A DNA stretch of 64,000 bases from the NCBI GenBank assembly GCA_040285855.1, contig JAUFOQ010000013.1, positions 682,001 through 746,000 of the forward strand, given 5' to 3'. Below, one piece after another: positions 24,434 to 59,904 of this stretch. Numbering within the stretch: the stretch's first letter is position 1; each line of letters opens with the position of its first letter. Below the pieces are notes generated by a model. It had not been told where the DNA came from. It made no database searches and was given only the letters and a program-made list of their open reading frames with translations. Position numbers and translations under genes: made by a program. The stretch is from Eukaryota sp. GEM-RC1. Lineage: Eukaryota.

Positions 24434-25059
24434 GATTAGTAGATAATGATGAAACTTTTTTCCCATCCAACCCATTTGTTGTTCAGGAGTGAACGAAAGA
24501 TACCTTTTAGCAACTAAAATGATGATTAATCTTCATGGCTCTAGATGAAATGACAACAACATTGGAGCCATCACAAGAAGAAAAAAGGTCAGACAAGCCA
24601 AAAACTGTCCCATGAGTTGGGTTTTCCCTCACCATGACTTGAATTTCTTGAACTATGATGTATATACAAATATTTTGTTTTTACTTGTGTTGTATTATGT
24701 TTTATGAGATGGACTGACTATTATGTGTAAATATGATAATATGATCAACATTTTTATATCAAATAATCTAATTCTTTATCACCAATGAATTTGTCTAAGG
24801 AAACTAAAGCAAGTGAACAAATGGTCTTACTACTAGTATGTGTTCCAATTGTATAATTGTGATTATGACTTCAAACATGGCAAGGAATGAAAATCTTTGA
24901 CTGTTTGTAAATTAAGATTGACGTCATAAAGTATGTAGCTTTGTTCAACTAAATCAAGCCTTTTTACCAAGATCAGAGCTATGATTGTATGAGACCTTCT
25001 TTTTGACAAAGAACTGGTTGAGAGTGTTGTCCAAAATTGAAATTAAATCACTTCTCAAC

Positions 25060-26935
25060 ATGGACTGCTTCGTTTGTTGTGAATCGTTCAATCTCTCGAA
25101 CCGTCTTCCCCTGCTTATCTGCTGCGAAGGACATACTTGTTGCTCTGAATGTGCTGCGTCACTGAATCGATGTCCTCTTTGTCGTAGCCATTGTCTTGGA
25201 CAGAAAAAGGTGAACTTTGCTCTGCAGGATCTGATCAAAGCATCTCGCGATGGTGAACTTTGTCCCCAAATTCCCGCAGATCAAATCGTTATCGGAGATA
25301 AGATCGCGGAAGGAGGTTTTGCTGAGGTATATTCCGCCCAATGGTTTGATCTCCCTGTCGCCATCAAGATGGTCTCCCTCACAGAGAAAGGACGAATAGA
25401 ACTCCAGAGAGAAATGAATCTTCTCTTCAATCTCAACCATCCTGCTGTTTTACGTGTGTTCGGTACCACCTACTTTGATGATATCATTGGTATCGTCATG
25501 GAATTAGCTTCTTCTTCCCTCCCCCTCCCCAAGTCTTCTCTCTCCAACTACTGTTAGGTACGCCAAAGAACTTTGCCAGGCAGTGAAGTTCCTCCATCTC
25601 AAGTCTGTTGTACATGGAGACTTGAAGCCAGCCAATGTCCTTTTGGTTGACGACCATGTAAGAGTTGCTGATTTTGGCACTTCCAAGAACCTCGCCGCCA
25701 CAACTCTAGTGACTAGACCAAATGCCATGAGTTTCAAGTATGCTGCCCCTGAGCAGTTTGAATCAAATGCTAGTACCTTCAGTGATATTTATTCTCTTGG
25801 ATTAATACTATATGAACTTTTAACTGGGCGGGAAGCTTTTGCTAGTTATTCAATGATGATACCTTTTGATGATTCAACACCAGAGTGTTTGAAAAAGTTG
25901 ATATTGAAGTGTTTAAATCCAGAACCTTCATTACGACCTCAAATTAATGAAATCACTGATATTTTAAATACTTTGGATGTTTGGGAAGCTGGTGGTGGTA
26001 TTTATGACCAATCATTTTTGATTGAAGGAAATGAATCTTTGAAAACGAAAATTGATGCTCTCAGTGATGAAGTTTTGAACTTGAAACGTGAGAATTCTGA
26101 ACTGTTACAAAAAATTCAAAGTAAGGACAATGAGCTTCGTGATATGAAAAAGTCTTCTAACCAACAAATTTTAAATTTGGAAACTGGCAATTTTTCCTTA
26201 AGAGAAAACAGTAAACATCCTAAATCTGAAGTTGTAAAATGCAAATCTCATGATACTGAAGTTCCTCACAAATCTATTGCACCGAAGCGAAAGAAAAAAT
26301 TACAACAAGAAATACCTGTAAAAAGGGAACTTAATAGTAACAGTGAAAATGATTTGAGTAACTTTAATCCAAGATTGAGGGGGGTTTTGGAAGAAATTAG
26401 GAATGGGTCTGTTAGTGAGGCTAGACTGGATAACCCTTATTTTGGTGATAAGGATGACCATATTGGTAATGAAGGTGCCATTGCAGTGGCTGAAGCTTTG
26501 AAGGTCAATTCCACTGTTACTCAGATTTATCTTCAGTGTAACTCTATTGGTAATGAAGGTATCATGGCATTGGCTGAAGCTTTGAAGGTGAATTCCACTG
26601 TTACTGAGATTTATCTTAATTGTAACTCTATTGGTAATGAAGGTATCATGGCATTGGCTGAAGCTTTCCAAGTGAATTCCACTGTTACTAAGATTCTTCT
26701 TTTGGATAACTCTATTGGTAATGAAGGTGCCATTGCATTAGCTGATACTTTGAAAGTAAGATACACTATTACTGGGAGTAAGCTTGACCCTTACTGTATT
26801 GAGGATTTAATGGCATTGACTGAAGCTTCGAAGTGGAATTCCACTGTTACTACGATTGGTCTTGGGCTTAACTCTATTGACTCTGAGACTAAACAACTCG
26901 TCAAAAGAATCTCGGATAATCGAATCGTGTTCTAA
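25060..26935 (+). CDS. RING - protein kinase - coiled coil - LRR protein, paralog of 13584..15257 (one frameshift ~25520)
   Basis: Same RING and kinase motifs; about six LRRs; short in-frame deletion in the kinase C-lobe relative to the paralog. Confidence 0.85.
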
Positions 26936-29058: not shown

Positions 29059-29081
29059 GTGCACTGTCTTAGCACTTTTCC

Positions 29082-32000: not shown

Positions 32001-33102
32001 ATCCTATATCCATTGAATCTCCTCAATCTTCTGGTGCACTTTTCTCTCACAAACCTTTTGCTTCTTTACATTTGGACCTCATACAGTTTCCAACTGATAA
32101 TGACGGAAATACCTACCTTCTTGTTGCTGTGGATAGCTTTACCCGCTTTACAGTACTTTGCTCTTTGAAGCAGTAGCTTTACAACTCTTTGAAAAGGTGT
32201 TTTCAGTTTTTGGTGTACCAAAAGCAATTCATTCCGATAACGAACGAGAATTCACCAATAGGGTGTGGACATCTATTTTGTCGAAGTTAAATGTAAAACA
32301 GAGTTTTTCTATTCCCGATCATCACCAAAGTAATGGCTTGGTCGAAGCTCGAAATCGTGAAGTAGTATCACTGACAAGAAAGCTTTGCATGACCACAAAT
32401 GACCGAAATTGGAGTCAGTACATTCCTCTCATCCAAATCCTCATCAACTCAAAACCTTGCTCTACAACATCATTTTCTCCATACACCTTACTTTTTGGAT
32501 CAAATGGACTTCAGCGGTCCGTTCTTGACGTCTTTTACTCTCACAACGACTCAACTCGACTCAATCTCTGTTCTTTTGCACAGTCCTATTTGTTTAGATG
32601 CGACTTGAACGATTCCCTCCAGAGATTGGAAGAAGAAGCGAAGAAACATCAAGAAAAACGCATTAAGAATGCATCCTCTCCATCTTTCAAAGAAAATGAT
32701 CTAGTTCTACGAAACAATGCCGCTGACAACAAACTACAAAAACACCTTGGCCCATTTATCATCAAAGAAAAGATGAGCAACTCCAAGTACCTCATAAAAA
32801 GCCTCATCACTAATCAAGAATTTGTTGTTTCTTCCTTTGCCCTTGGATCTTATAAGTCGAACTCTATAGAGGAAGCAACTGCTGCAGCTGCCAAAGACGT
32901 TTCTGAATATGTCGTTACAAAAATTCTGGATCATAACATCATTGATGATCAGTATGAGTTCCTGGTTGAGTTTACATCTGGTGTTAAGAACTGGGAACCA
33001 CTCTCATCACTAAAGAACACTCGTACTAATGAAGAACTTTTGAAGTACTGTAAGTCCAAGAAAATTAAGATACCTCCTTGCACACGAAAGAAGAAAGGGT
33101 AG
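29082..33102 (+). pseudogene. gag-pol polyprotein (CCHC knuckle, aspartic protease, RT, RNase H, integrase, chromodomain) with frameshifts and a stop
   Basis: CFYCHQPGHIAAKC; LLDTGA; YIDD; ADAS..EKELFA..TDHRNL; HSDNEREF, SNGLVE; EYVVTKILDH..YEFLVEF..NWEPLSSL chromodomain. In-frame TAA at 30590-30592 in the RT frame. Confidence 0.92.
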
Positions 33103-33193: not shown

Positions 33194-33727
33194 CTCACAA
33201 CTCTTGCGCCAATCGAGCTTTACTGAAAACTCGTGATGTGGCTGGCAAAAAATTGAAATTGCAGTAACCAACAGTTTCACCCCTCATTCGAGTAAAAGGT
33301 CCAGACCGTTCAGCATTTTCTTCATCATCACAACTCAAGTCATTTACTATCAAAGAATTGCATTGATTGAGTTGAGTCCCGGGAGACAGGAGTAAGGTAG
33401 GCTTTCGCCATCTGTTCTCGAGTGGGACTAGAAAAAAACGTCGTGTAAGATGATGTGCAGAATGATAACAGATTTACATTTGTTAGTCAGAACTAGACGG
33501 ATACTACTGGTAGTAAGGACTTTTAAATGTACACAAATCAAATACTACTGTACTCTGTTGCTTAATTCTTTTCAAGTTACAAAAAATAGTGGTCTAAAAC
33601 TATTGTTCAAAATCGAAATTGTTACAGTATATTGCAATACAGAATGATACTGCGATACAGTTTTGCAATACACAATACACATTATTCCAATTATTGCAAA
33701 AGTTCAATATATTTTTGACAGACCCTG

Positions 33728-35190
33728 CCTTAGTCATTGGACGTTCTTCAGTTGATCTGAATTTTGGGGAATCTTCCATTCTGTTTGTCAATTGTTCAGA
33801 TGAATGTGTCAAGTTTTTGGGCAATTATATTGGTAATGATGACAAAATTAAGGAGACTTTATCACATAAGAATATCTGTATCATTCAGCAGCTTAACCAA
33901 ATCGTTGATCTAGATGTAGGCAAACAAGTTTCTTTTGCTATGCTGCAAGTGTGTTTTGGTGGTAAAATTCATCACTTTTTACGTGGTTTACCGCCTGAAC
34001 TAACTCTCGAATTATCTCGTAATTTTAATTCATTGCGCACAAATTTTGTTAGTTATCTGGTTGGTAACAATGACTCTTCACTTCCTTCTCATTGTTTCAC
34101 TTCTACTTCTTTTGGTGGTATTGGTTTCACGAAAGCTAAGTACATGCGTGAGGGTGCCTTTTTGGGGTCTTTAAAGAATTTTTTGTTTGAATTTCAGAAT
34201 CGTTATCCTGTGTTATGGAAAACGAAAGATTTTTTACTTCACTCACCTTGTGCATGGTTAATTAGTCTTCAAAATTTAATTGATAGTCTTGACTCCAATT
34301 TGTGGTCAGATTTATTTCCTGTTGGGTAACAGAAATTCAGCAGAGAAGCATTTTCTCTTTGCCTTTGTGTGTTCGCAAGTTACAGAAGAAGTTTGTTTTG
34401 TTTCACGAAAGCTTGGACCTTAAAAACCGTATTAGCTTGGCTAAGACTAAGAGTTCCGCTTTTTGTGCTTTTTTTGAATGATATTTCTTCAAGCGCTGTG
34501 TCTTCTTTTGTTTCTCGTTCGCCAAGAAAATTTTGTTATAATATTAAGGATCATGAATGGCTTATAAACATGAGACTTAGGTTAGGTTTATGGCCTTCAG
34601 GTCTTTTGAAGCATTCTCCATGTCTTTGTGATCGTTCAAAGGCTTCAAATTTTCATCAATTAATAACTATCATCAAGTTATTCATTTTCGATCAATTATT
34701 CACAACAGTATCCGAGATACATGTTCGGATATGTTTAATGCTAATGGTTTTCATGGAAAAATTGAACCTTTACTTGCTAATCTTTCTGATCAGCCAAAAG
34801 TTGATAGAAGTCGTGGTGATTTGATTGGTGTTTGGTTATCTTGTCAGGAAATTATCATGGATTTCACGACTGTTGATCCTTGTAATTCAAGATCAATTTC
34901 CAAAATTTTTGATGATGATTTTTCTGCTCTTGAAGTGGCTGAAAAGGAAAAAATACAAAGAACTGTCACATAATTAACCAATTAAATGTTGACAGGTACA
35001 ATTCTTTTGTGTTTCAACCTTTTGCGATGTCGATATACGGTAATATTGGACCATCTGCACAAGGTTTTTTTAACCTCCTTTGGTAAATTGTGTTCTGAGT
35101 ATGGTAAAGTTTTCAATGAAAATTTTTGATTGAGTAGGTCAACGTTTGCGTTGTTTCGTTCAATGCACAGATATTTTAATTCAATTTAAG
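33728..35190 (+). mobile_element. Degenerate non-LTR retrotransposon fragment (RT C-terminus plus RLE), related to 23310..24315
   Basis: VKFLGNYIG, IHHFLRGLPP, FGGIGF, MRLRLGLWP..CLC, RGDLIG..MDFTTVDP..AEKEK; multiple frameshifts. Confidence 0.75.
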
Positions 35191-36528: not shown

Positions 36529-37818
36529 ATGTCTTGCAATCCTTCTGCTTGTGCTAACTGTCCTCTGACCTGCATGTCAGGGCGCCAAACACCTTCTGAG
36601 CCTGCTGATAAGGCTGAAATAACCCAACAACCCGAAACTATTGAAGAACCTCTTCCCCCTATTGATATTGAGAATCTCCCAGTCAAGCTTCCAAATACCG
36701 GAGAGCCGGCAAAAGTGGTTCATTTGGTTAGTGGTGGACTCGACTCTCTTCTTGTCACACAGCTTCTTGTGAACATGGGTCTTCACGTCATAGTCTATCA
36801 TGGAGTTCATTCCTTTGAACCTCATGGTGCTGAGTATGTATCTTCTAATAACTTACATTAGTCGTCAAGATAGTTCAAAAAGACTTGAAGCAAGACTTCT
36901 TGGAATGGGTGTTAAAGAAGTCGTGTTTGTGGAGACCTCTATGCAAATATTGGACTTCGTACGCAATCCTAAGTTTGGCCTAGGCAAGACCAAAGCTAAT
37001 CCCTGTGTTGATTGTCGTCTCAATAATATTCGTATTGCTATCGATATTTGTAAGGGAGAAGGGAGCTCAATTCATCACTTCAGGAGAAGTTATCGGGTAT
37101 GTACTCTATCTCACATGTTTATCTCAGACAACGGCCCATGTCTCAGCGAAAGGAAGCCATGAATTTGATTGATGCTCACATCAAGAAGATGGGATTTGAC
37201 GGCCTCATTGTTCGACCTCTATGTGCTCAAAATCTCACTCCTACTATTCCCGAAAGATTAGGTTGGATTGATAGATCTAAGCTATATAACTTTTCCGGAC
37301 GTAGCAGAAAGCCACAAATGAGATTGGCAAAGCAACTTAATCTTGGTAAATATCCTTCTCCCGGTGGTGGTTGCCTCTTGACTGTTGATAACACTGCTCA
37401 AAGAGTGTTGGACCTTCTCAAACATGAAACCCCTGAAAATCCCATCACTATGACTCATCTTGATCTTATTGCTGTTGGCCGTCACTTCCGCTTTTCTCCA
37501 ACTCAAACTGTTATTCTAGCTAGAAACGAAGTTGAAGTCAACAAAATCCACAGTCTTGCGCCAAAACACGTAAAGTATTCTGCTTACGGTGTTTCTGGTT
37601 CGATGGCCCTTGTTTTTGGTTCTATTGATGAGAAGTTTGAAATCTTCATCTGTGGGGTTGCACTCTATTACAGTAAGCTCAGAGAAAGTGAAGAAGGAAC
37701 TGTAGCACGTTATGGTGGCGAAGACGAGATTGCTTTTGATCAGGGAGCAATGTTGGCTGGTAAGAAGGTCTCTAAACGTGAAGATTTTCTTGATCAAATG
37801 ATTGGACTCAATCAATAG
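36529..37818 (+). CDS. Bacterial-type PP-loop tRNA sulfurtransferase (ThiI/MnmA-like, DUF814-associated family); two introns and one frameshift
   Basis: SGGLDS, NPCVDCR, (S)GEVIGQRPMSQ after splicing, RPLCA, GRSRKPQ, YPSPGGGCLLT, GRHFR. Confidence 0.85.
36834..36861 (+). other. 28-nt spliceosomal intron
   Basis: GTATGTATCTTCTAATAACTTACATTAG; removal joins ORF 36529 to ORF 36800 in frame (HGAD-RQDSSK). Confidence 0.85.
37097..37127 (+). other. 31-nt spliceosomal intron
   Basis: GTATGT...CTCAG; removal restores the conserved GEVIGQRPMSQ motif. Confidence 0.88.
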
Positions 37819-42020: not shown

Positions 42021-43997
42021 ATGTCATTTGCACAAAGAGTAACAGCAAAAGCCCTGGATCTGATCCAGACTTGTATCGAGATCACTCATGAAGCTGCAGC
42101 TGGTCATCCTTCTTCTTCTGCTTCCTTAGCTCATCTCATGACAGTTCTTTGCTACAAACACATGAAGTGGGATCCTCAAACTCCCGACAGTCCTCTTTCT
42201 GATCGAATAGTTCTCTCAGAAGGACACGCTGCTCCCATTGTTTATGCAATTGGTGCTGATCTTGGGATAAGCATTCAGGACTATACTACCAAAGCTACAC
42301 GTCCAATGACCCGAAGTGATGCTGACACTCTCAGAAGTCTCAATTCTCCTATAGAAGGTCATCCCAACCCTGCTTTTGGGTTTAAATTCTTTCCAGCAGC
42401 AACAGGATCTCTCGGACAAGGTCTCAGCGTTGCACTAGGATACGCTGCTGCGTCTAAGCTTGACAATATACATCGTAGTGTCTTCTGCATAATAGGAGAT
42501 GGTGAATCTCGAGAAGGGCAAATCTCTGAAGCATTGGATTTTCTAGTTGACCACAAGCTGTTTTCGGTTTGTCCAATTTTCAACTGCAATGGATGGGGAC
42601 AAGCCAGTCTGGTTTCACCTCAACAATCCCCAGAACGGCTTGTAAAGAAACTAAATGCATATGGTTTTGAAGTTGCTCAAATTGACGGTCATAATGCTGA
42701 TGAAATCCTCCATGCATTCAAACAACACGATGAATCAGTTAAAAAGGAGGTACCATTTGCTATTGTTGCAAAGACAACTAAGATGTGGGGCTGTCCATCC
42801 CTGTATACCAAAAATCTTCACGGAAAGGTTGTACCAGACGTACAAGCTGCATTAACGGAGTTGAATAGTTTTCGAAAACAACTGAAAGTCGAAGGACTGA
42901 GTCTCAACATGGACTGTGAAAAGCCACAAGGTCAAGTTCCACAACGTTCTCCACAGAAACCATTACCAAACACGTTTCAGGAGCTGATGCAACAGGCTGG
43001 CAAGGACGTTCCTGATCAAATCGCTACTCGTAAGGTTTATGGTTATGCACTTAAAGTGTTTGGTCTGTCTGATGATGATGTGATTGCTTGTGACGGAGAT
43101 GTTAAAAATAGTACTAACGTTCAGGAGTTTGCAGATGATCCGGTTCTTGGAAAGCGTTACTTTGAGGGAAAAATTGCTGAACAAAACATGATTTCTTTTG
43201 GTATGTGATGATATTGACAACTAATCTCAGGCGCTGGAGCTGCTCTTCAGGGGAAAATCCCATTCATCTCTTCGTTTGGACACTTTTTCTCGAGAACTTA
43301 TGATCAAATATCACTTGCTGTATATTCCGAAGCTAATCTCAAAATTGTAGGATCCCATGTTGGTCTAGGTCCTGCTAGTGATGGGCCTTCTCAAATGGCT
43401 CTTACTGACATAGCCTGGAGTACTAGTCTTGGTTTAATGAAACGACATTCTGATGGAAACCCAGCTTTACTAACAATCAATCCTTGTGATGGTCCGTCTA
43501 CTTGGAAGTTACTGTGTCAGGCAAAGGAGTGGAACGGTCCTTGTTACATTAGGGTCTTACGTCAGGATACTCCAATGATTTATCCTCATGATTGTGACAT
43601 TGAACTTACACGTGGCTTTAATGTTGTAAGTAGTGGCAAGACCAATGCTATTCTGGCTTCTGGATTGATGGTACATGCAGCGTTGAGAGTGGCAGCGAAG
43701 ATGTCGGTTCAACCTACAGTGATTGATGTGTACGCTTTTCCTTATTGTGAGAACTCACTGTTTGAAACTTTGAATGTCCTTGGAGTTGGGAAAATACTGA
43801 CACTTGAGGACAATTGTGGTTCATCATTAGGTGCGCTTGTTTCCTCCACAGTTTGTGACAAGTGTCCTGGAATTGGTGTGAGACAATTGTATGTGAGAAA
43901 AGCACCTAAATCAGGTCGCTCAGTGCAGGATTTGCTACAATTTGAAGATTTAGATGATGATACCATTCACTCAGTTGCATTAGAATTTCTTAGATAA
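42021..43997 (+). CDS. TKT: Transketolase (one 30-nt intron)
   Basis: GHPSS, SEGHAAP, ATGSLGQG, GDGE..EG..CN ThDP motif, IAEQNM, DGPSQMA. Confidence 0.93.
43201..43230 (+). other. 30-nt spliceosomal intron
   Basis: GTATGTGATGATATTGACAACTAATCTCAG contains in-frame stops; removal gives EQNMISFG-AGAALQGKIPF. Confidence 0.9.
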
Positions 43998-44062
43998 AGT
44001 TCCAATTCAAATTTTCAAATTTTAAAATGTGGGAAGAACAATTTCTGCTCAGCAACATCTTA

Positions 44063-45052
44063 ATGAATTCTTCAATGCACTTTAAACCCGCAAGCACATG
44101 TTCTATTCTTGATCATGGACCAACGATTAACCATAGTCAATTACGCGATTTGGTGAGAGAACATGCTGGTATAGTGTATACTCTTTGTCGTGACTGTGTG
44201 TTTTCATATAATCTCAGGACAAAGAGAAAGCTGCGGCTACCTTCTTTATCATTTCACCCCCTTTGCTTGGATGTAAACCATGGCTATGTTGTTACTGGAG
44301 GCCAGCGTGGTGAGTTGAATATCTATCATCTTTCCTCTCAACAATCAGTCTATACTGGGCGCATCGCAGAGGACACTGTCAACTCTTTACAACTTGTTTA
44401 CTATCAGAACTCAAATGTCATGTTGACTGTCTCCACCAATGACAGCTATATTTCCATGTATACGCTACCATCGATGGAGCAGCTTCCTGATCTCTCCTTT
44501 AATGCTCCTGTGAATCACACTTCAGTGTCTCCAAATGGCAAATTGCTTGCAACTGTGGGTGATCACAACCTGACATACTTATATGGAAACAACAATGGTC
44601 GATGGACCAAGATTCATGCTTACAATTGTTTCACTGATGCCGGATTCACAACGGACTGGAACTGGCAATCATTGATGTGGGCGTCTGCTTCTCAAGATGG
44701 AACAGCAGTTGTTAACGATGTTAGATACTCTGGAGTTTTGAAGAAGTTGTCTGCTTATAGACATCCTGAAAACCCAGATGGTGTTTCATCTTGTTTTCGA
44801 TCATGTAAGTTCTCCAAATGTGGAACAACTGATCTTTTAGCGTTCTCGCAGCATCGTTCCTATGTGATGGTGTGTGATGCTAGAAACTTTGCTGATACAA
44901 ATGTTCTTAATGTTGGCAGAGGTGTTGATCTAGCTGGTTTGTGTTTTGTTGATCATGATCGTTTTCTTTTTTACGCAACAGAAGACGAAATAGGGACAGC
45001 GGCCATCAATAAGGCTTCACGATTAAGAAGATGTGATCTGGATTTTTTGTAA
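44063..45052 (+). CDS. WD40-repeat protein (DUF2415-like), copy 1; start uncertain (44027/44063/44075)
   Basis: HSQLRDLV, GGQRGEL, VNHTSVSPNGKLLATVGD, ASASQDG, FRSCKFS, DLLAFSQH. Confidence 0.8.
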   Translation: MNSSMHFKPASTCSILDHGPTINHSQLRDLVREHAGIVYTLCRDCVFSYNLRTKRKLRLPSLSFHPLCLDVNHGYVVTGGQRGELNIYHLSSQQSVYTGRIAEDTVNSLQLVYYQNSNVMLTVSTNDSYISMYTLPSMEQLPDLSFNAPVNHTSVSPNGKLLATVGDHNLTYLYGNNNGRWTKIHAYNCFTDAGFTTDWNWQSLMWASASQDGTAVVNDVRYSGVLKKLSAYRHPENPDGVSSCFRSCKFSKCGTTDLLAFSQHRSYVMVCDARNFADTNVLNVGRGVDLAGLCFVDHDRFLFYATEDEIGTAAINKASRLRRCDLDFL

Positions 45053-45401
45053 TTTCTAAGCGTGATTCGATGGTTTTTTTTGAAAAATTCAAATAGTTAA
45101 TCTAACTGATTAATTGTCTGCGTCGTCTTGTTTATTGTTTGTAGCAGATGTTGAGGTGCACAATACATGACTCGAATGTTAAAGTTCTTCAGTTGATGAT
45201 ATCAACGTTTCTAGACTTTTAACTGTTGTTTACTTGATTGTTCGCTTCTATCAGGGAAGCAACAATATGATCACTGTTGCGACCTTATCATCATCCAATA
45301 AATTTTGAATACTACAGAATGGGATCTCTCAAATGATATCTTTACTACAATAGATCTCCTATGTTCCACTAATATCCGATAAGCTTTTTGCTTACTAAAC
45401 C

Positions 45402-46400
45402 ATGCTTATTCTTGATAGTTCCTCATTCTTTAAACACACAAACCCTCGATCTATTCTCGCTTCTGCACCGAAGATATCCCACTGGCAACTACGTGATTTG
45501 ATGAGAGAGTATAATGGAATCATTTACTTCACTCATGCAACAAGAGTATTTTCGTACAATTTGAGAACAACCGAGAAGTTTTTGCTACTTTCCGTGTCAT
45601 TTTTCCCTACTTGCTTGGATGTAAACCATGGCTATGTTGTTACTGGAGGCCAGCGTGGTGAGTTGAATATCTATCATCTTTCCTCTCAACAATCAGTCTA
45701 TACTGGGCGCATCACACAGTCCGTTGTCAACTCTTTACAACTTGTTTACTACCAGAACTCAGATGTCATGTTGACTGTCTCCACCAATGACAGCTATATT
45801 TCCATGTATATGTTACCATCAATGGAGCGGCTTCCTAATATCTCCTTTAATGATCCTGTGAACCACACTTCAGTGTCTCCAAATGGCAAATTGCTTGCAA
45901 CTGTGGGTGATCACAACCTGACATACTTATATGGAAACAACAATGGTCGATGGACCAAGATTCATGCTTACAATTGTTTCACTGATGCTGGAATGACAAC
46001 GGACTGGAACTGGCAATCATTGATGTGGGCGTCTGCTTCTCAAGATGGAACAGCAGTTGTTAACGATGTTAGATACTCTGGAGTTTTGAAGAAGGTGTCT
46101 GCTTATAGACATCCTGAAAACCCAGATGGTGTTTCATCGTCGTTTCGATCATGTAAGTTCTCCAAGTGTGGAACAACTGATCTTTTAGCGTTCTCGCAGC
46201 ATCGTTCCTATGTGATGGTGTGTGATGCTCGAAACTTTGCTGATACAAATGTGCTTAATTTTGGCAGAGGTGTTGAGCTAGCTGGTTTGTGTTTTGTTGA
46301 TCATGATCGATTTCTTATGTATGCCACAGAAGATGAAATAGGAGCAATGGCTATCAATCTTCCGGCGAGACTGAGAAGTTGTGATCTAGACTATTTGTAG
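45402..46400 (+). CDS. WD40-repeat protein (DUF2415-like), tandem copy 2
   Basis: HWQLRDL and the same motifs; central ~700 bp nearly identical to copy 1. Confidence 0.8.
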   Translation: MLILDSSSFFKHTNPRSILASAPKISHWQLRDLMREYNGIIYFTHATRVFSYNLRTTEKFLLLSVSFFPTCLDVNHGYVVTGGQRGELNIYHLSSQQSVYTGRITQSVVNSLQLVYYQNSDVMLTVSTNDSYISMYMLPSMERLPNISFNDPVNHTSVSPNGKLLATVGDHNLTYLYGNNNGRWTKIHAYNCFTDAGMTTDWNWQSLMWASASQDGTAVVNDVRYSGVLKKVSAYRHPENPDGVSSSFRSCKFSKCGTTDLLAFSQHRSYVMVCDARNFADTNVLNFGRGVELAGLCFVDHDRFLMYATEDEIGAMAINLPARLRSCDLDYL

Positions 46401-46722: not shown

Positions 46723-47428
46723 CTACTTACGCGATGCCAGAGCTTGTTCAAGTTGTGTCTTTAACTGCATGTTAGTCTTTTTCAGACAATTAATCTCCTC
46801 CTGGAACTTCAGCTCAGCCGCATGCTTCTGTTCAGCCATTCTCCTCTCCACTGTCTCTGATCGAACTCTCAAGTCCCCCAACTGTTTAGTCAGAGAGTCA
46901 ATCTCTTCCTTGAGTGTTGTCACCTTTGTTTCAGCCTCTGCTTGTTTCTTCTCAGCGTCAAGAGCCTTTCTGAGTCCATATGCAATAGATGATTCGTAGA
47001 GGGTTTCATAAGCATCCAGGGTCATTTTAAGCTCGTCCCGGATCCTTAGAAGTAACAAACCTCTCTCAGCACAGGTAATTGTTACTTGGCGGATGAGTTC
47101 ATCAAAGACTTGGGAATAGAGTTCTCGTCGAATAGGACAAATGCCCATGTCTAGGGCTTGACGTGCTTTTAACCTATCATCTAGTTCTTGTTGAAGTTGG
47201 ACTACTTCTAATCTGGTTGCAGGTGCAGAAGAAACAGTTTGGATCCAAAGTTGACCATCTTCTTCGAACTCACTGCTATTAGTGAATTGAAGGAGCATAC
47301 CGAGGAGGGAGAATAGAATTAAGAATGTCTTGAGTTTGAGATGCAGGTTCATTTTTCTTAGTTTTAGAAGACACTAGAACAGGTTTTTCATAAGCAAGAA
47401 GAGAAGATTTACTGTTAATCTGGGTCAT
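46723..47428 (-). CDS. DNALI1: Axonemal inner-arm dynein light chain p28 (one 28-nt intron 47273..47300)
   Basis: After splicing: DILNSILPPREFEEDGQLW..SSAPATRLEV..QARxxGICPIRRELYSQ.FDELIRQVTI.CAERGLLLLRIRDE. Confidence 0.93.
47273..47300 (-). other. 28-nt spliceosomal intron
   Basis: Minus strand GTATGCTCCTTCAATTCACTAATAGCAG; removal restores LPPREF. Confidence 0.9.
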
Positions 47429-48558
47429 TTAGGATAGTCAAAGTATGATGTGAAGAATGTAACAGTAGTTTTCATTTTGGGTGAATATCCCCTGTCCATT
47501 TTCCAATCTTTTTACTTATGGGATATACTTTTGGAATGCTTTGGGACTCAAGACTCGACTTAACGAGCATGTCTATCCACGCTTCGGAAGACACCAAAGT
47601 GAGGGATGTTTGGTCCTATCTCTGGATGCGGACGATCCATCTTCTGATGAGTCATCAGAGACTCTGATGATGCTTCTGTGAGGATCCTCTTGCGTGAATT
47701 TTATTCCCCTTCCCTTTCATCTCCCCAACAATTCCCCCATCTCCTCTTCCGTGGTCTGTTGTGTCCTTTTATACATGCCATTATCCTTCCTAAGGTTATC
47801 TGAAGTACAATCTAGTGCAGAACTTCACTTCCTTCGTATTCAATCGAGGTAGCTTCTTTCTTCCATTAAAGTAAGTTGAAGTTGTATTTCCCATATGTGA
47901 TTTTAAATTTCTGAGATAAATATTGTTTATTCGTAATTAGAACCAACCAATGTGTGCTGCAAATAGGGATCATTACCTACCGATATATTTGTCTCGCAAA
48001 GGCAGTTGCTTCTGCAATTTCCAATTGTTTAGTAATATAACCATTGGGTTTTTAAGACTGTATATCATTGGTCTATCGCACAGTAGCAATAATCAGTCAT
48101 ATAGAATGCTTAAAGAGAGGACTGGACGTTGTCACACTTGTTTTCAAGGTGTTTGAGAGAAGTCAAAATGAAGTAAAAGTAGGATCAAAGGAAGATCTGA
48201 TGATGGGGACTGAGTGTTTCTAAAAGGAAGACGAGTCTTGAGTTTCTGGCAAAAGACTTCTGATCATTGTGGCCTGAATAGAGACCGCAAAAGGCGCATC
48301 TTAAAAGATAGAATCGTGAATGAAACTAACATGAAGATATTCTGAGAGAGTGAGGTATAATGACTAAAATTGTTGAGAGGAGGTAGGAAAGTTGTACACC
48401 GTATCTAGAGAAGGAGACAAAGTTTTGCCATAAATTAACCGAGTTGTAAAGTGGAAAGTAAACTGTTGACAAACTAACAATCAAGTTGGAAACTGAATCC
48501 TGCCGAGAGGAAAGTGACGAGAACGAATCACAATGTCGACAATTGTTATTTCCTTCCC

Positions 48559-49527
48559 ATGTCTCCTGTCAGTCTTCCCGAAGTAGTTCACGGCCCGGAG
48601 TATACACTTTATCCTTGTGGTTCATCCTCTCACAACAATGGTGACACTATATTTCCCCCGCCTCTTAAGAAGTCTCACCTGTCTTCTGTAGATGACATCC
48701 CACTGTATTGCCTTATTGATTTTAAAACGGTCATTACCGATAGTGAACGACTTACCCCACTCCTTTTCAATGTTAAGAAGAAATCTCTTCCGAAATGCAC
48801 TACTACAGAATCTTCAACAGAAATTGTTTCTGAAGAACAAGAGGCTGCTGAAGTTCCAACAATCAGTGAAGAAATTGAAGTGTCCAGGCCAGAGCTGGGA
48901 CCAAATGCGGAGGATGATCAAATCATCCTTATTGTCCTCACATTTATTTACACCAATTTCGTTTCTACTGTTGTCATCAGTACCAAAAAAACAAGTGATG
49001 TTGATGGTGTTCAAACAATTACTTTTCCATCAGAAAAAGTCATGATTAATGGTCTTATATCTTTACTGTCCGAGAAAAAGCCTAGATTGCTTATAAGTTA
49101 TAACTCTGAAAAATTATTGTTCCCGTTTTTAATTGCACGATGTAAACTTTTGAACATCTCCACCACATTTAATGTGGATGAGCCATTCAGGCCTTTTATT
49201 CCCATCTGGTTCTATAGATGGTGTAAGCAAAGCGAATTTGGACCATTTATTTCCCTTGATATGGCAAATGTTGTAAAGTCAACCTATGTTTTCAAAGGTG
49301 GTAGAGGTTTAGAAAATGTTTGCTCCAAATTGTTTCAAAAGGCAATACCTAATTTAATTTTATCACCAACTGAATTCAAAACTTACTTCAACCAATTCAA
49401 AAAAATCCTAAAAATATCAACGGTTAGCGAACAGGAGAGGGAGTTTACTTTGCTTGCTCAAAATATTAAAACTTCCAAGTTATGGATGGATGACAAAAAC
49501 GCAACTCTCTGGTTGAAGATTTGCTGA
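48559..49527 (+). CDS. Inactive family-B DNA polymerase 3'-5' exonuclease-like domain; probable N-terminal part of the Fanzor ORF
   Basis: PNAEDDQIILI, GVQTITFPSEKVMI, KPRLLISYNSEKLLFPFLIARC and LDMANVVK..YVF..GLENVCSKLF parallel the Pol delta/zeta exo motifs (PE.E.DPVIQI, F.tE.ELL, PDII.GYN...FD.PYL..RA, D....Y.L..Y.L..V). Acidic catalytic residues are largely lost. Confidence 0.65.
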   Translation: MSPVSLPEVVHGPEYTLYPCGSSSHNNGDTIFPPPLKKSHLSSVDDIPLYCLIDFKTVITDSERLTPLLFNVKKKSLPKCTTTESSTEIVSEEQEAAEVPTISEEIEVSRPELGPNAEDDQIILIVLTFIYTNFVSTVVISTKKTSDVDGVQTITFPSEKVMINGLISLLSEKKPRLLISYNSEKLLFPFLIARCKLLNISTTFNVDEPFRPFIPIWFYRWCKQSEFGPFISLDMANVVKSTYVFKGGRGLENVCSKLFQKAIPNLILSPTEFKTYFNQFKKILKISTVSEQEREFTLLAQNIKTSKLWMDDKNATLWLKIC

Positions 49528-52317
49528 ACAAAATTAAGATGTTGTCCGAATTGAAGAATTATTTTTTTGATGAAGAAATTCAGCTTGTTTTAGACCGCCC
49601 TCCGATTAAAGTCGTAAAAAAAGGATTGGATAAGGTTTTCAGAGAATTGATTAAAATTTGTTCTAAACGAAATCAAAAAAGCAACTGTGAGGGGGAACCA
49701 CCTTCTTGAAGCATTTGCTTCTACGTGAATTTGAAGATTTTGGAAGAATCGAAGCTGAATCAATAGTCAAAGAAAGAGAATTGATGTTACTGCACGATGA
49801 CCCTTCGTTGTCCATGATTGGAAGTGATTCAGAGTCTTCTGAGAATTGTAATATCTGCTATAATTACAAAGACTTTTCGGTTCGCTTACCAGATTTGGAG
49901 TCCTTTTTGGCTCTTGGATCAATAAGGCACGTTCTCCGACGAATGTATGTGGAGAAAAAAAAGGCTTGCGGTATTTCCGACTTGAAAATGTCAAAAATAG
50001 AAGCAGAAGCAGTTTTACAAAATGAAAAATTTGATCATTCTTTGAAACAAAAAATCGCATTACACTACTGTAATAATTTTTATCCAATTCTTGACTCTCT
50101 GTCTCATGAAATTGGAAGTAACAACATTTCTTTTCCTAATTTGGAGTTTATGTCAGGCATTTATCATTATACAGCTAAACAAATTGAAACCAATTATGCT
50201 AACAATTTGGCGAAATACTTCCACAACTATGTCTTTCGCTACTTTAACATTGTTACGTTGAAGAACTATCGTCTTAAACAAATTAAAGAGCAACACTTAA
50301 AGAAGGAATTGAAATCAAAATTAAATTCCATCAGAGAACTGATTATTGATGGGAACTTTGAAGACATTCCAATTGATGATCATATTATTTTCCCCTTCCC
50401 GCAATCAGAATTGACTTTAATCTTTTTTGCATATTTGAAATTCTGTTTGTTCCCTACCAATGCCAAAGGCAAGAATCTTTACTACGCTCAGAAAGTCAAG
50501 CCAATACAATTTCTTTCTCATGCTGTTTATATCAACAGAATCATTCAGTCTTTTTGTTCAATTGATGGAAAACCCTTAAAGGTTAATAATCCGTTCCCAA
50601 TGACCAAGACGTTGGTCCCACAACATATTAGATTAGATACTGCTTGGATAAACCAAAGAGTTTTAAATTTGAAAGGTTCCGCTAACGTTATTCGAAAGGA
50701 AGTATTTGACTCTGTACTTACCGAAACTGCTATTACATCATCACGATCATTTGGTCTGAAGTATTCTTCGATTGTAACAGATGGCATTTCCTGTTCCTTG
50801 GTTATGATTCGAAAAGATTTGCTGGATGAAAACGGTAACACCTTTGAAGATTTTACCGCAAAACCACTAATATCTTCGGAAAGATATATTGACTCTTTAA
50901 CGTCGGAAGACATTGAAAAAATGAACCTGACAGAAAAGCGAATAATTGGCATTGACCCGAATGAATATGACTTGATGTTTTGCGTATCTCCAAAAACAAA
51001 TGAAGAGATATTATTTGAAGAATTTTCTTGTTCCGACAACAGTCCCACGAAAAAACGGCTACCTTCAGAAATGAGACTGAAACAGAAAGGTGGTATTAAA
51101 AAAAGAAAAAAACAATTGAACCAATGGAGACAAACCCCATCTCAACGAGTACGGCTGAAACCAAACCACTTTTTGGCCAGCTTCAGGTACAGTACTGGGG
51201 AGAGATCATATGACCGAAAAAGCAAGAAATATCGGTTGACTGAAAGAAGAAAACTAAAAACTTCCTTCTTTGAAATTACGAAAACAGAAACTGAAAGATC
51301 GCTCCAAGATTATACAGTCGAAAATTCTAATGGTAGAACTGTTTCTGGTCAAAAAATCCTCGACGAATTTGCTCTTACCGTCTCTAGAGGACAACAAAGG
51401 TTCTGTTTCAGTGATGAGTTCGAGACTTACATCAAAGAAGCTGAACGGAGTTGTGTATACCTGAGTGATTTCTATGACGACGATTGGTTTACGAAAAGGA
51501 AGTTTCAAATTTATTCCAACAATCAACAGAGTGAAAAGAATATGTTGGAAAGGTTTAAATTAACCTATGGATCTCCAGAAGACCTTGTCCTTGGTTACGG
51601 GGATTGGAGTTCTAAGGGAAACACAAGAAAAGGTAAAACTCCAGCTATTAGAGGAGCAGAAATCCGAAGAATTTTAAGAAAATTCGGGTATAAGGTATTT
51701 CTAGTTGACGAATACCGTACCAGCAAGTCCTGTTCAAAGTGTGCTGCTCAAGGACTATTTGGATTATGTACAAATGATCCATCTATCAAAGTTTTAGGCC
51801 CAAGAGGACTGCGTCAAATAAGACGGAAGAAGAAGAAACTCAAGGAAAAAGTACTGGTCTACAACAGTAAGGATCCACCGAAAAGAGAAGCTTTGAAGAC
51901 GAGTGGGAGAAGATAAAGAAGTCCGTAGAAGTAAAAGCTAAGTCAACACCATGGGGGCTGGTAAAATGCAAAATGTGCAAGACTTATTGGAATAGAGATC
52001 TCAACTCTTCGATCAATATCTATTCCATTATCGAAGCCGCCATCAAAGGTCAAGCTAGACCATCTATTCTCGAGAGATCAAAAACTTTAACAACTGATTT
52101 CGAGAGTGGTAATGTTACTTTGAAGAGAGATCGAAAAAAGACTGCAGCGAAAAAGACTCGTAAAGAAAGAGAGTGTGGAGAATGTGGACAAACAGGTCAC
52201 GACATACGAACATGTCCACAGCTAGATGAGTCAAACCAGGGTTCACCTAAAACTGGATCGAGAAAAGAAAAGGAGGAACCCCAACGAAGGCAGTCAAAAG
52301 AACAAGATCTCCCTTGA
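49521..52317 (+). CDS. Fanzor (eukaryotic TnpB-like RNA-guided RuvC endonuclease), split by frameshifts at ~49690 and ~51890, with C-terminal CCHC knuckle
   Basis: VPQHIRLDT, TDGISCSL, RuvC-I IIGIDPN (D at 50954), FRYS, GYGDWS, RuvC-II LVDEYRTSKSCSKC (E at 51710), CKMC-x3-WNRDLNSSINI RuvC-III (D at 51997), CGECGQTGHDIRTC. Confidence 0.88.
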
Positions 52318-52460
52318 AGAAATCAGTCCACCATAAACGGTCGGGCAGCGCTATGTGTATGAAGCTATCTCAGTCTCACCGTATCATCTCATAGCATAGC
52401 GTGTCTGTGATGCCTAAATGGATATGACCAAAGTGGGAGCAGGATTTACTTTGGGAGGAT
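52310..52460 (+). ncRNA. Candidate Fanzor omegaRNA scaffold
   Basis: Directly 3' of the Fanzor stop codon. Stems CGCTATG(52349-55)/CATAGCG(52395-401), extended by GGGCA/TGTCT and TATGA/TCATA, and CCAAAGT(52428-34)/ACTTTGG(52448-54). Confidence 0.55.
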
Positions 52461-52498
52461 TATCCTTGTGGAATGAACTTCACAGAAAGTCAATCTTG

Positions 52499-55774: not shown

Positions 55775-56660
55775 TCGAAACACTTTTTACTGTGTTGTAA
55801 CCTTCATGGCGGTTAGTTGGTTCAGAAATCTATTAAATATTCAATTTTCAGCACTTTTACAATACAACAAACATGTTATGATACGATTACTACTGTAGTT
55901 GTTCAGGAACACACAATTTCAAATAGTGTTTTCAACCTCAAAGGTCAAAGTGATTGAATCAGTTTGAAAACTTCTTAGGACCTTTAATGCATCTAAAGGA
56001 GTTAGAGTTATCGATAACATTCAAAAAGCAGTAAAAGTGTATATTATACAATTGAATTTTCATCTAACAACTTGGCCAAAATGTAATAAACGTATCTATA
56101 AATTGACTTAAGAAGTAGAAAAGTTAATATAATCCTATTTATACATGTTACACTTTTAAGCAAATTTTGAACTCAGTTTTCCAAAGCAATTCAGAAACTC
56201 TTTAGTGTAACTGCTACAATGATAAAAAAGATAAAAAATACTTTGAGAAGACAACACTCCTACGGTGGATATCTAGAAGTTTTTGTATATCTGAAAATGA
56301 CAACATCGGCAAATTGGAGGAATCTTGCAAATGCAAATTCTTTAGTGTGAAGTAAAGTGTACAAGTGACTTCAGTTGGAGTGAAGTTACACATCACCAGA
56401 AATGACTAAATAGGTTTAAGATAGGGTGGTAAGTTGAAACATCATTATAGAACTTGGCAATAGGACAAACATATACAGAAGAATTTCAGAGGTTTATTGT
56501 ATGAAAATAAACTTTCTAAATATGATACAAAATTTCAATAAGAATACATACGGAAGATGATGATGGACGAAGAAAACGTCATCAATTGTTACGTGGTGAG
56601 TTAACAAAAGAGAATTAGCACTTGATCCGATTATTTGAGATTCTTTCGATGAGTTGTTTA
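55775..56660. repeat. 3'-flank duplication shared with the kinase-LRR gene (homologous to ~10490-10675 and ~12966-13630)
   Basis: Colinear sequence such as GACCTTTAATG.ATCTAAAGGAGTTAGA and CAACTTGGCCAAAATGTAATAAACGTATCTAT in both places. Confidence 0.85.
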
Positions 56661-59600
56661 GTCTCAGAGTCAATAGAGTTAAACCGAAGTTTAATCTCAG
56701 TAACAGTGGAATTGACCTTCAAAGCATCAGCCAATGCAATGGCACCTTCAGTACCAATAGAGTTAAACCCAAGAGGAATCCGAATAACAGTGCAATTGAC
56801 CTTCAAAGCATCAGCCAATGCAATGGCACCTTCATTCCCAATAGAGTTTTCCCAAAGAGAAATCCGAATAACAGTGCAATTGACCTTCAAAGCATCAGCC
56901 AATGCAATGGCACCTTCATTCCCAATAGAGTTTTCCCGAAGACCAATCTCAGTAACAGAGGAATTCACCTTCAAAGCATCAGCCAATGCAATAGCACCTT
57001 TAGTACCAATAGAGTTTTCCCCAAGATAAAGCTGAGTAACAGTGGAATTCACCTTCAAAGCTTCAGCCAATGCAATGGTACCTTCAGCACCAATAAAGTT
57101 TTCCCAAAGATTAATCCGAGTAACAGTGGAATTGACCTTCAAAGCTTCAGCCAATGCAATGGCACCTTGAGTACCAATAGAGTTTTCCCGAAGACCAATC
57201 TCAGTAACAGAGGAATTCACCTTCAAAGCATCAGCCAATGCAATGGCACCTTGAGTACCAATAGAGTTTTCCCGAAGACCAATCTCAGTAACAGAGGAAT
57301 TCACCTTCAAAGCATCAGCCAATGCAATAGCACCTTTAGTACCAATAGAGTTTTCCCCAAGCTCAATCTTAGTAACAGTGGAATTCACCTTCAAAGCTTC
57401 AGCCAATGCTATGGCACCTTCAGTACGAATAGAGTTAAACGCAAGATCAATCATAGTAACAGTGGAATTCACCTTCAAAGCATCAGCCAATGCAATGGCA
57501 CCTTCAGTACCAATAGAGTCCCTTTTAAGACCAATCTGAGTAACAGTGGAATTCACCTTCAAAGCATCAGCCAATGCAATGGCACCTTCAGTACCAATAG
57601 AGTTACTACCAAGATCAATCCGAGTAACAGTAGAATTGACCTTCAAAGCATCAGCCAATGCAATGGCACCTTCAGTACCAATAGAGTTAACAACAAGATT
57701 AATCTGAGTAACAGTGGAATTCACCTTCAAAGCTTCAGCCAATGCAATGGCACCTTCAGTACCAATAGAGTTAACAACAAGATTAATCTGAGTAACAGTG
57801 GAATTCACCTTCAAAGCTTCAGCCAATGCAATGGCACCTTGAGTACCAATAGAGTTACTATCAAGCTCAATCTTAGTAACAGTGGAATTCACCTTCAAAG
57901 CTTCAGCCAATGCTATGGCACCTTCAGTACCAATAGAGTTACTACCAAGATCAATCCGAGTAACAGTAGAATTGACCTTCAAAGCATCAGCCAATGCAAT
58001 GGCACCTTCAGTACCAATAGAGTTAAACGCAAGATCAATCATAGTAACAGTGGAATTCACCTTCAAAGCATCAGCCAATGCAATGGCACCTTCAGTACCA
58101 ATAGAGTCCCTTTTAAGACCAATCTGAGTAACAGTAGAATTGACCTTCAAAGCATCAGCCAATGCAATGGCACCTTCAGTACCAATAGAGTTACTACCAA
58201 GATCAATCCGAGTAACAGTAGAATTGACCTTCAAAGCATCAGCCAATGCAATGGCACCTTCAGTACCAATAGAGTTAACAACAAGATTAATCTGAGTAAC
58301 AGTGGAATTCACCTTCAAAGCTTCAGCCAATGCAATGGCACCTTCATTACCAATAGAGTTTTCCTGAAGATCAAGCTCAGTAACAGACCCATTCCTCATT
58401 TCTTCCAAAACCTGCCTCAATTCAGGTTTTAACTTACTCAAATGTATATTTTTTAATTGTAAAACTTCAGACTTAAGACTTTCAATATCCTCTCTTAAAA
58501 AACGATTGTCAGTTTCCAAATTTGAAATTTGTTGGTTGAAGTTCTTAACTTCATCGGGGAAGTTCATATTTGCTCCCACCAGTTCAACTCTCAACTTTGC
58601 CACGTCAGCAGCGAGTGTGGCAGTCGATGATTGGATTTGAAGAGGGACCATTCGGAGTAAGAATCTGTTAAGTAAAGGCTCAATATCCACGTCATCAAGT
58701 AAATCAGACAAAGTCTCAGAAATGACGTTTGCAGTCTCTAAAGTACATGTGATGGATTTCAAACAGCTGCTAAACTGTGACTTTGTCCAATCAGATTTTA
58801 AATTTTGCCAGGAATTGCGTAAACATTTAGCAAGGAAAACAGAATCAACGTTAAAAGAAGAAAGAATTTCAAATAGATCTGGAGTTACTTTGATTCCATT
58901 ATCAGTAGATTTGATTGATCTGAGACGTTGTCCATGTTTTTTAACAAACATGAGATCATTTAAAGTACTTGCTTGTTCAATAAATCCTACATCAAAGTTA
59001 ACTTCTATAAAGTCATTTCCAGCAATAACTACTGACTCTACTTGAAAATAGGATCCTAAATAGGTCAACTCAAAAGCATTTTCAGTAGTCAATTTGATTT
59101 TACTTCCACTCAAAAACTCAAAAAAGCTTTGAAAACTTTCTCTTGGCACCTTCAGCATATCATCAAAGCTAAGTTCTTGTTCATTTGAATCAGCCCATTG
59201 ACTAGTCCAAAGGTTAGCAAAGTACTTAGAATAACAACATAAGTGAAGCCTATTTGTTTTAGCAATATAGTCTTTATACTTCAGTTGCACTTCATGAGGA
59301 GTTTCCCTCTTCAACTTTTCTAGAATAGTTGATCCTTGGAGAGAGAAGACTTTGTTACTAGACTGTAGTCCCTTTAGTTGAAGGTTGGTGCAGTGGGAGA
59401 TCAAAGGAGTGTACTTTAAGAGTTTTGCGATCACATGAATGTCAAAGAGATTGGTTTCGTTGATGTCTAAAGGAAAGCCGTACATGGACAACATAATGGC
59501 TTCAAAGATCGAGGGATCTTCAACCATTCCCGAAGAGTTGATTTCAACATGATCTTGGCGATCTAGTTTTTCAAGGTATTTGGAAAAGAGAATGACAATG

Positions 59601-59722
59601 GAGAAGTGGCAGTGGAACTCGAAGTCCTCGAACTCAATAACACAGTCAGTGAGATGATTGTTGGATCGGAGATATTGTAGCTGTTCGATGGCTTCCTTGG
59701 CAAAGTCAGATATGGAGAGCAT
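56615..59722 (-). CDS. BTB-BTB - coiled coil - RI-like LRR protein (about 21 LRRs)
   Basis: Intact 1035-aa ORF. LTDCVIEF..FHCHFSIV..FSKYL and LCCYSKYFANLW BTB motifs; 28-aa repeats NSTVTxIxLxxNSIGTEGAIALADALKV. Confidence 0.92.
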   Translation of the reverse strand: MLSISDFAKEAIEQLQYLRSNNHLTDCVIEFEDFEFHCHFSIVILFSKYLEKLDRQDHVEINSSGMVEDPSIFEAIMLSMYGFPLDINETNLFDIHVIAKLLKYTPLISHCTNLQLKGLQSSNKVFSLQGSTILEKLKRETPHEVQLKYKDYIAKTNRLHLCCYSKYFANLWTSQWADSNEQELSFDDMLKVPRESFQSFFEFLSGSKIKLTTENAFELTYLGSYFQVESVVIAGNDFIEVNFDVGFIEQASTLNDLMFVKKHGQRLRSIKSTDNGIKVTPDLFEILSSFNVDSVFLAKCLRNSWQNLKSDWTKSQFSSCLKSITCTLETANVISETLSDLLDDVDIEPLLNRFLLRMVPLQIQSSTATLAADVAKLRVELVGANMNFPDEVKNFNQQISNLETDNRFLREDIESLKSEVLQLKNIHLSKLKPELRQVLEEMRNGSVTELDLQENSIGNEGAIALAEALKVNSTVTQINLVVNSIGTEGAIALADALKVNSTVTRIDLGSNSIGTEGAIALADALKVNSTVTQIGLKRDSIGTEGAIALADALKVNSTVTMIDLAFNSIGTEGAIALADALKVNSTVTRIDLGSNSIGTEGAIALAEALKVNSTVTKIELDSNSIGTQGAIALAEALKVNSTVTQINLVVNSIGTEGAIALAEALKVNSTVTQINLVVNSIGTEGAIALADALKVNSTVTRIDLGSNSIGTEGAIALADALKVNSTVTQIGLKRDSIGTEGAIALADALKVNSTVTMIDLAFNSIRTEGAIALAEALKVNSTVTKIELGENSIGTKGAIALADALKVNSSVTEIGLRENSIGTQGAIALADALKVNSSVTEIGLRENSIGTQGAIALAEALKVNSTVTRINLWENFIGAEGTIALAEALKVNSTVTQLYLGENSIGTKGAIALADALKVNSSVTEIGLRENSIGNEGAIALADALKVNCTVIRISLWENSIGNEGAIALADALKVNCTVIRIPLGFNSIGTEGAIALADALKVNSTVTEIKLRFNSIDSETKQLIERISNNRIKC
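56670..58395 (-). repeat. 84-bp tandem repeat array encoding the LRRs
   Basis: Unit ..ACCTTCAAAGC(A/T)TCAGCCAATGCAATGGCACCTTCAGTACCAATAGAG.. repeated about 21 times. Confidence 0.95.
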
Positions 59723-59904
59723 TTGGGGGAGATTTCATACAACTTTGACTTTGTAATTATGCTCTCTCGAAGACATATCATACGTTTTCTTGTTTCTTTT
59801 AAAAACTTCACAGCATTACATCTCTGTTTTGTGATATGAGATATCAAATCACAATCATCACGATAACAAAAGTGAACTGATATGAAAAATTATGCTGTTG
59901 TGGC

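Follow-up and report, generated by a model that had tools for sequence, protein, structure and literature searches.

A Fanzor1-type nuclease gene joined to a family-B DNA polymerase exonuclease domain in Eukaryota sp. GEM-RC1

In this work, we analysed a stretch of 64,000 nucleotides (nt) of Eukaryota sp. GEM-RC1 (contig JAUFOQ010000013.1 of assembly GCA_040285855.1, positions 682,001 to 746,000 of the forward strand; hereafter the window), and found that a gene of 3759 nt, counted from the ATG at 48559 to its stop codon, encodes a Fanzor1-type nuclease, predicted from sequence and modelled structure to be RNA-guided, and that this nuclease is almost certainly fused behind a 3′-5′ exonuclease domain of the family-B DNA polymerase (PolB) type. 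The best overall explanation, to which we assign a probability of about 0.6, is that the gene is one copy of a likely mobile multi-copy element, and that the frame breaks interrupting it in the assembly are probably read errors. Four overlapping plus-strand open reading frames (ORFs) together span 48478-52317, and tblastn of a one-ORF sister protein, P0010, covers 48559-49497 (97%), 49494-49694 (85%) and 49694-52087 (94%). The first-pass annotation of the window had started a Fanzor gene at 49521; this position lies in the last helix of the exonuclease domain, the gene beginning near ATG 48559, so that the first 960 bases with that domain, and also a C-terminal zinc knuckle, had been overlooked (Table 1).

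Regarding the nuclease, the 741-residue middle ORF found three matches by phmmer against the PDB, all Fanzor1 (SpuFz1, E 1e-13; GtFz1, 3e-11; PpFz1, 3e-10) and far above chance, and the second CxxC together with WNRD, contributed by the next ORF, aligns with the SpuFz1 end. For the structural model of P0010, all seven Foldseek matches at E ≤ 0.001 were Fanzor1, the Fanzor2 structure 9b0l reaching E 0.13, and VIA-align gave Z 13.5-17.1 for Fanzor1 structures versus 6.3 for the next row, with a root-mean-square deviation (rmsd) of 4.5-6.6 Å over 486-546 residues. Against a viral structure library the same model had 20 matches at E ≤ 0.001, many of them from giant viruses. These comparisons of sequence and structure bear out the Fanzor1 type that the first-pass annotation had proposed, and all the motifs named there were located, from PQHIRLDT through WNRD; its claim of three intact RuvC catalytic residues holds for the DNA, whereas the assembly places the RuvC-III Asp in a different frame from the remaining pair.

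Moreover, the motif described for all Fanzors, D-X(125,275)-[TS][TS]-X-X-C4 finger-X(5,50)-RD (PMC3627910), is present, with 255 codons from D 50954 to TS 51719, CxxC at 51731 and 51967 and RD five residues on, the pattern crossing frame break 3. The Fanzor hallmarks of a DPG-type motif in RuvC-I and a RuvC-II Glu six residues ahead of the zinc finger (PMC10711439) appear as GIDPN and DEYRTSKSC, and the TDG motif that marks Fanzor1 is found in the WED domain (TDGISCS, 50777), along with a REC/WED architecture of Fanzor1 type. The protein thus resembles SpuFz1 (8gkh, 9ceu-9cez), GtFz1 (9cer) and PpFz1 (9cf0) in its WED TDG, in the Glu just before the zinc finger and in the RD behind it, and shares the RuvC-I DPN with SpuFz1. 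However, it differs from the solved Fanzor1 chains in its length (~1,250 residues versus ~600-730), in a structural alignment identity of only 17-19%, in the extra N-terminal PolB exonuclease domain and C-terminal zinc knuckle, and in that no terminal inverted repeats were found for the window gene. The start given for the Fanzor1 body, at the KVVK segment, is our reading of the alignment with unfused relatives, and the knuckle pattern C-x2-C-x4-H-x4-C recurs in the relatives P0021, P0028, P0059, P0168 and P0185. The nuclease is probably active in at least some copies.

The exonuclease domain was recognized in the upstream ORF (from ATG 48559) by PF03104, with E 2.3e-10 and 40.7 bits versus a cut-off of 23. 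The exonuclease part of a sister, P0009, was folded alone on a 68-row alignment, and its model matched PolB proofreading domains in the top 17 rows at Z 16.2-19.2, with other DEDD nucleases at 13.2 or less; because the alignment was rich in archaeal PolB domains, this model does not count as evidence separate from the sequence match. Pol epsilon (4m8o), Pol delta (6s1m), T4 gp43 (1noy) and archaeal PolB (4flt) fit at Z 18-19, with an rmsd of ~3 Å over ~190 residues and a like layout of the ExoI, ExoII and ExoIII motifs. Archaeal PolB, Pol delta, Pol epsilon and viral enzymes all scored alike, so no one polymerase family stood out as the donor. In a comparison with the Atlas, clusters of PolB exonucleases came up at 0.82, which serves just as a lead, and P0182 had no usable match. 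Unlike in family-B polymerases, no polymerase domain lies behind, as PF00136 had no match in any of the 14 + 18 records scanned and the Fanzor body comes directly after, and a disordered, acidic insertion of ~48 residues follows ExoI.

An active DEDDy exonuclease has D and E in ExoI, D in ExoII, and Y and D in ExoIII. The window family, whose motifs read IDFKT, YNSEKLL and DLLNK, has kept the ExoI Asp (48718) and has Lys for the ExoI Glu, Leu for the ExoII Asp and Lys for the ExoIII Asp; with three of the four carboxylates lost, in contrast to family-B polymerases, the domain is predicted to be dead in this family. In the P0009 model, residues 50-58 lie in the central sheet and residues 66-113 are disordered, and ExoI therefore reads D-x-K; an alternative register, EEIEV, which MAFFT aligned to the archaeal FDIEV, was rejected, since it is disordered in the model while residues 50-58 hold the sheet. 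In a second organism, described below, the motifs are FDVET, YNCDKFD and YCxND, all three in seven of ten records, so the DEDDy set of family-B proofreading domains is complete and the domain is predicted to be active.

That the two parts make up one protein follows from P0010 (1,182 residues), a single ORF over 48559-52087 in which no residues are missing relative to the window. An exact cluster look-up at ≥90% identity gave 13 records, two from the window and 11 from NCBI labelled Eukaryota sp. GEM-RC1 (the sisters), the latter with well-separated locus tags, and the cluster spans seven contigs in all. When 1.84 billion representatives were searched for homologues, 1,094 matched at E ≤ 0.001, and the analysis covered the 150 of them that were listed. 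The second organism, labelled Eukaryota sp. TZLM3-RCL, holds a family of ten records in two clusters, of which P0018 (1,473 residues) has both Pfam domains and, in an alignment of 1,202 columns, is 27% identical to P0010. Seven of these ten records join ExoI, ExoII and ExoIII to RuvC-I in one ORF, and six continue through RuvC-II and WNRD with the exonuclease DEDDy and RuvC sites intact; the complete ones are without a zinc knuckle. Between the two families, ~30% identical overall, the linker aligns gap-free, the exonuclease domains being 32% and the cores 29% identical. It is highly improbable that the exonuclease ORF is a separate neighbour gene or a polymerase remnant, linked to the Fanzor by gene models alone: the two parts do sit in different frames in the window and the sister proteins are predictions, but the junction is read across in five of five sisters and in seven second-organism records, the linker is gap-free and alignable, and no polymerase domain lies downstream.

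Beyond these two families, a profile of the exonuclease region over 202 proteins matched only the two fused families and one ordinary polymerase, and a region search with P0018 returned two records of its own family and one ordinary PolB. No other fused relative was found in viral contigs, a metagenome scan gave three ordinary archaeal-type PolB genes only, and no longer protein containing the window exonuclease ORF was matched; such searches work on short words, which distant relatives escape. In a midpoint-rooted FastTree of 72 rows, made up of 12 labelled records plus 60 unnamed representatives (the first 60 of the 96 with ≥580 residues) and containing no named reference Fanzor1, Fanzor2 or TnpB, the 12 labelled records form one group with support 100. 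The two fused families fall on opposite sides of the first split in this group, a placement that fits one old capture of the exonuclease domain; the other families of the group are fragments whose N-termini are out of view.

A 2A-like ribosome-skipping motif stands ahead of the exonuclease domain in eight of the ten P0018-family records (DGDVExNPGP in seven, NLGP in one), at residues 103-112 of P0018 and in the same place in P0165, P0167, P0176 and P0179-P0182, and a six-frame scan upstream of the window gene found none. Motifs of this kind have reportedly been seen in non-LTR (long terminal repeat) retrotransposons. A 2A survey contains no occurrence of Fanzor or TnpB (PMC12338488).

The window family occupies at least 12 loci at ≥90% identity on seven contigs, and this copy number alone suggests a recently mobile element; some cluster records could be haplotype duplicates. 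In being multi-copy and, as far as seen in the window, without a transposase of its own, the family is like the Spu-1 element, which has 75 nt between stop codon and element end (PMC10432273); the stem that we list as a candidate omega-RNA scaffold lies where Fanzor1 omega-RNAs lie, its folding signal being modest. A direct similarity between 47511-47539 and 52445-52476, which beat 200 of 200 base shuffles, was set aside as chance, as ten of 212 real-sequence controls scored as high. Further Fanzor1 families occur under the same organism label (clusters P0059, P0017, P0023, P0078 and P0015; ~30-65% identity, one with 26 members), present as fragment records, and a third label, TZLM1-RC, has Fanzor1 fragments as well. 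P0004 and P0026 have consecutive locus tags (007297/007298); one is an exonuclease-bearing piece of the window family, the other a Fanzor piece from a different family (40% identity), and their adjacency suggests nested or tandem insertion.

Based on known Fanzor1 biology, we propose that an omega-RNA from the 3′ end of the element would guide a cut at empty insertion sites, that repair from an occupied copy would restore or spread the element, and that a transposase encoded at another locus would likely mobilize the element in trans. The nucleases of OMEGA systems (short for obligate mobile element-guided activity) have been described as homing endonucleases, which cleave the unoccupied site and set off gene conversion (PMC13565253), and the biological role of Fanzors is called unknown in PMC10432273. 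The SpuFz1 cuts in the two strands lie 16-17 and 20-21 bases, respectively, from the target-adjacent motif, or TAM (PMC10432273); on the TAM side, the 3′ end would thus be left with a short tail mismatched to the donor copy. Such a tail would need removal before synthesis, and a tethered 3′-5′ exonuclease would trim it so that copying starts; in the window family, the dead domain would merely hold the 3′ end, or may be decaying. The 3′-5′ exonuclease of T4 DNA polymerase, also of family B, affects the efficiency of intron homing (PMC2988022). Because of the SpuFz1 cut positions, OMEGA homing and this T4 effect, tail trimming may tentatively be put first among the possible ancestral roles, before end destruction or guide trimming. 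In homing of the T4 td intron a family-B proofreading exonuclease likewise acts after an endonuclease cut (PMC2988022), but there it belongs to the replicative polymerase, acting in trans, and the endonuclease is protein-guided, whereas in the present fusion exonuclease and endonuclease share one chain; the analogy serves as a lead only. Somewhat less assured still is the wider proposal that a Fanzor1 lineage captured a proofreading domain and may in this way have given rise in nature to an RNA-guided homing enzyme with two nucleases, which would "cut and trim" and so ready its own break for copying; the intact form in the second organism would in addition be freed from a leader by the 2A-like peptide.

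It seems less likely that the exonuclease instead destroys cut ends, keeping a competitor such as a virus or rival element from religating its breaks, or that it shortens the omega-RNA guide from the 3′ end. The DEDD fold does include TREX1, Cas2-DEDDh and RNA exonucleases (Z 10-13), Fanzors are found in giant viruses and their particles (10.1101/2024.09.03.611062), and Fanzor1 guides are trimmed to ~15 nt (PMC10432273). However, the domain is nearest to PolB proofreading domains (Z 16-19 versus ≤13 for other DEDD nucleases), which act on DNA 3′ ends, and among the matches listed, 149 other representatives work without an exonuclease domain.

As for the frame breaks, the window copy has four single-base differences from its sisters, at A5, A6, G5 and A4 runs; all four indel sites are at runs of ≥4, and 25% of the gene positions lie within 3 bases of such runs. 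Separate copies break at separate homopolymer runs, the fourth sister reaching break 2 shifts at the same G run as the window, and break 3 is read through in two of six records and common to the other four, the window's own included. In the host genes of the window, two kinase paralogues have indels in or beside C/T runs, as does a WD40 gene (at 53727 and ~53830, by eye); the statement of the first-pass annotation that housekeeping genes break at homopolymers is correct for these, but three further host breaks are, by eye, 28-31-nt GTATG...CAG introns. Because the breaks of the window copy are at homopolymers, differ between copies and are seen in host genes too, they are, judging by the sequence, more likely read errors than real. 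The contiguous native gene that the first-pass annotation expected is thus found at the level of the family, each break being read through in at least two sister records, while for the window copy, with its widely shared break 3, contiguity is only slightly favoured. A 32-nt intron from GTAAG 51867, formally able to bridge break 3, was rejected, because the sisters have Arg where a Ser codon of the window gives the GT, and because the segment appears as protein in two sisters and is conserved in the distant relative P0021. Short GT-AG introns are present in the window, and spliceosomal ones read by eye, 28-31 nt long and bounded by a GTATG donor and a CAG acceptor, lie at 43202-43231 (+), 47272-47299 (-) and ~37100-37130 (+).

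Several points weigh against the overall explanation and the role proposed for the exonuclease. First, none of the 13 window-family records gives the whole protein in one frame, two records that pass break 3 shift ~25 codons further on, the distribution of break 3 is as compatible with an inherited frameshift as with a systematic read error, and true slippage likewise favours homopolymers. Second, the sister proteins are known here as gene models only, and the P0010 model (mean pLDDT, the per-residue model confidence, 62; Fanzor part mostly 80-96) is uninformative on domain packing, since residues 1-528 are mostly below 50. Third, no terminal inverted repeat stood above chance, the best alignment being equalled by 22 of 200 shuffles, no transposase was found beside the gene in the window, and the omega-RNA candidate is weak, with a folding z of -2.6 for 52320-52399, where three of 25 scan windows fell under -2.5, of +0.4 for 52318-52440, and no Rfam match at the stem. 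Fourth, the window family has expanded even though its exonuclease is predicted to be dead, which makes the exonuclease activity dispensable, and engineered TREX1, TREX2 and T5 exonuclease fusions all impaired a Fanzor2 (PMC12923547).

Two alternatives bear on these points. The fusion family may be real and the window copy a dead relic with true mutations, yielding at most a protein without RuvC-III, which we consider a serious but less probable reading: it accords with the sharing of break 3, with five residues that the sisters have and the window copy lacks, and with the decay of most copies of mobile families, but, breaks aside, there is no in-frame stop over ~1,250 codons, the copy is 94-97% identical to P0010, and every indel is at a homopolymer, with the same type of break in host genes. 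Domestication of the gene for a fixed host function, with its mobility lost, is very unlikely, as the failure to find terminal repeats or a transposase and the position between two host genes are set against the number of closely similar loci given above and several more multi-copy families in the same records.

No natural Fanzor-exonuclease fusion was found in the full-text literature as far as it was available, and subscription papers, patents, Repbase or supplements could hold one; in the accessible portions of Fanzor papers, including 10.64898/2026.06.03.729735 and 10.1101/2024.09.03.611062, no second nuclease is described as naturally fused to a Fanzor. A precomputed table already assigns the two Pfam labels to P0018 and P0176, so databases show this architecture even if no description of it exists. 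What appears new is a PolB exonuclease at the N-terminus of a Fanzor1, predicted to be dead in the window family and intact in a relative. TREX2-SpCas9 is said to be an engineered fusion of an RNA-guided nuclease with an exonuclease. The TREX1, TREX2 and T5 exonuclease fusions of evoMmeFz2 likewise tether an exonuclease to an RNA-guided nuclease, but they are man-made, use other exonucleases and lowered the activity of a Fanzor2 (PMC12923547), whereas the present fusion is natural and has been retained across ~70% divergence. A natural exonuclease partner points to the step after the cut, where Fanzor biology is least understood, and makes this step testable, as one organism has the active form and the other the dead form of the same domain. 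In genome editing, exonuclease fusions are commonly used to alter repair outcomes, and a fusion kept by evolution may reveal a workable geometry. Without the fusion, the window gene would be one more Fanzor1 among the 1,094 representatives; Fanzor1 proteins are common, and it is the conserved, directly testable fusion that sets this gene above an ordinary member.

Table 1. Features of the fusion gene and its 3′ flank, in window positions.
Feature	Position	Strand	Remark
Whole gene, ~1,250 codons	48559..52317	+	Order: PolB-type exonuclease, Fanzor1, zinc knuckle; three frame breaks as assembled
Family-B DNA polymerase 3′-5′ exonuclease domain, predicted catalytically dead	48700..49570	+	PF03104 and fold
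Frame break 1, A5 run	49493..49497	+	Read through in 5/5 sister records spanning the break
Fanzor1 body: WED with TDG motif, REC, RuvC, TNB zinc finger	49608..52080	+	Catalytic D 50954, E 51710, D 51997
Frame break 2, adjacent A6 and G5 runs	49674..49696	+	Read through in 3/4 sister records reaching the break
PQHIRLDT; TDGISCS; GIDPN; FRYS	50618; 50777; 50948; 51182	+	In ORF 49691-51916
GDWS; DEYRTS; first CxxC	51599; 51707; 51731	+	In ORF 49691-51916
Frame break 3, A4 run	51881..51885	+	Cuts RuvC-III off from the rest
Second CxxC; WNRD	51967; 51988	+	In ORF 51871-52317, other frame than ORF 49691-51916
C-terminal CCHC zinc knuckle behind basic linker	52174..52215	+	Pfam zf-CCHC_6 E 0.004, under the curated cut-off
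Candidate omega-RNA scaffold, 18-pair imperfect stem	52343..52406	+	Begins 25 nt past the stop codon

The gene is flanked by a gene for an axonemal dynein light chain (Pfam E 1e-71) and by the WD40 gene, whose likely start is ~180 bases from it; the dynein gene and the short GT-AG introns mark the window as eukaryotic. Small ORFs at 47469-48641 had no convincing Pfam match (17 scanned), and in the coding region Rfam gave two weak small nucleolar RNA matches only, under the gathering score. Elsewhere in the window, a run of four ORFs at 29073-33102 (+), broken by several frame changes, appears by its motifs to be LTR-retrotransposon-like, with a gag knuckle, protease, reverse transcriptase, RNase H and integrase, and two ORF remnants at 23274-24062 and 33598-34824 (+) presumably resemble the C-terminal part of non-LTR retroelement proteins. 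The genes at 13584-15407 (-), 24985-26935 (+) and 56615-59734 (-) are, again presumably by their motifs, RING-kinase-leucine-rich-repeat and related genes; this family has an 84-nt repeat unit in common, and its two kinase copies break in C/T runs. Tandem duplicated WD40 genes at 43994-45052 and 45399-46400 (+) are 88% identical and 1,348 bases apart.

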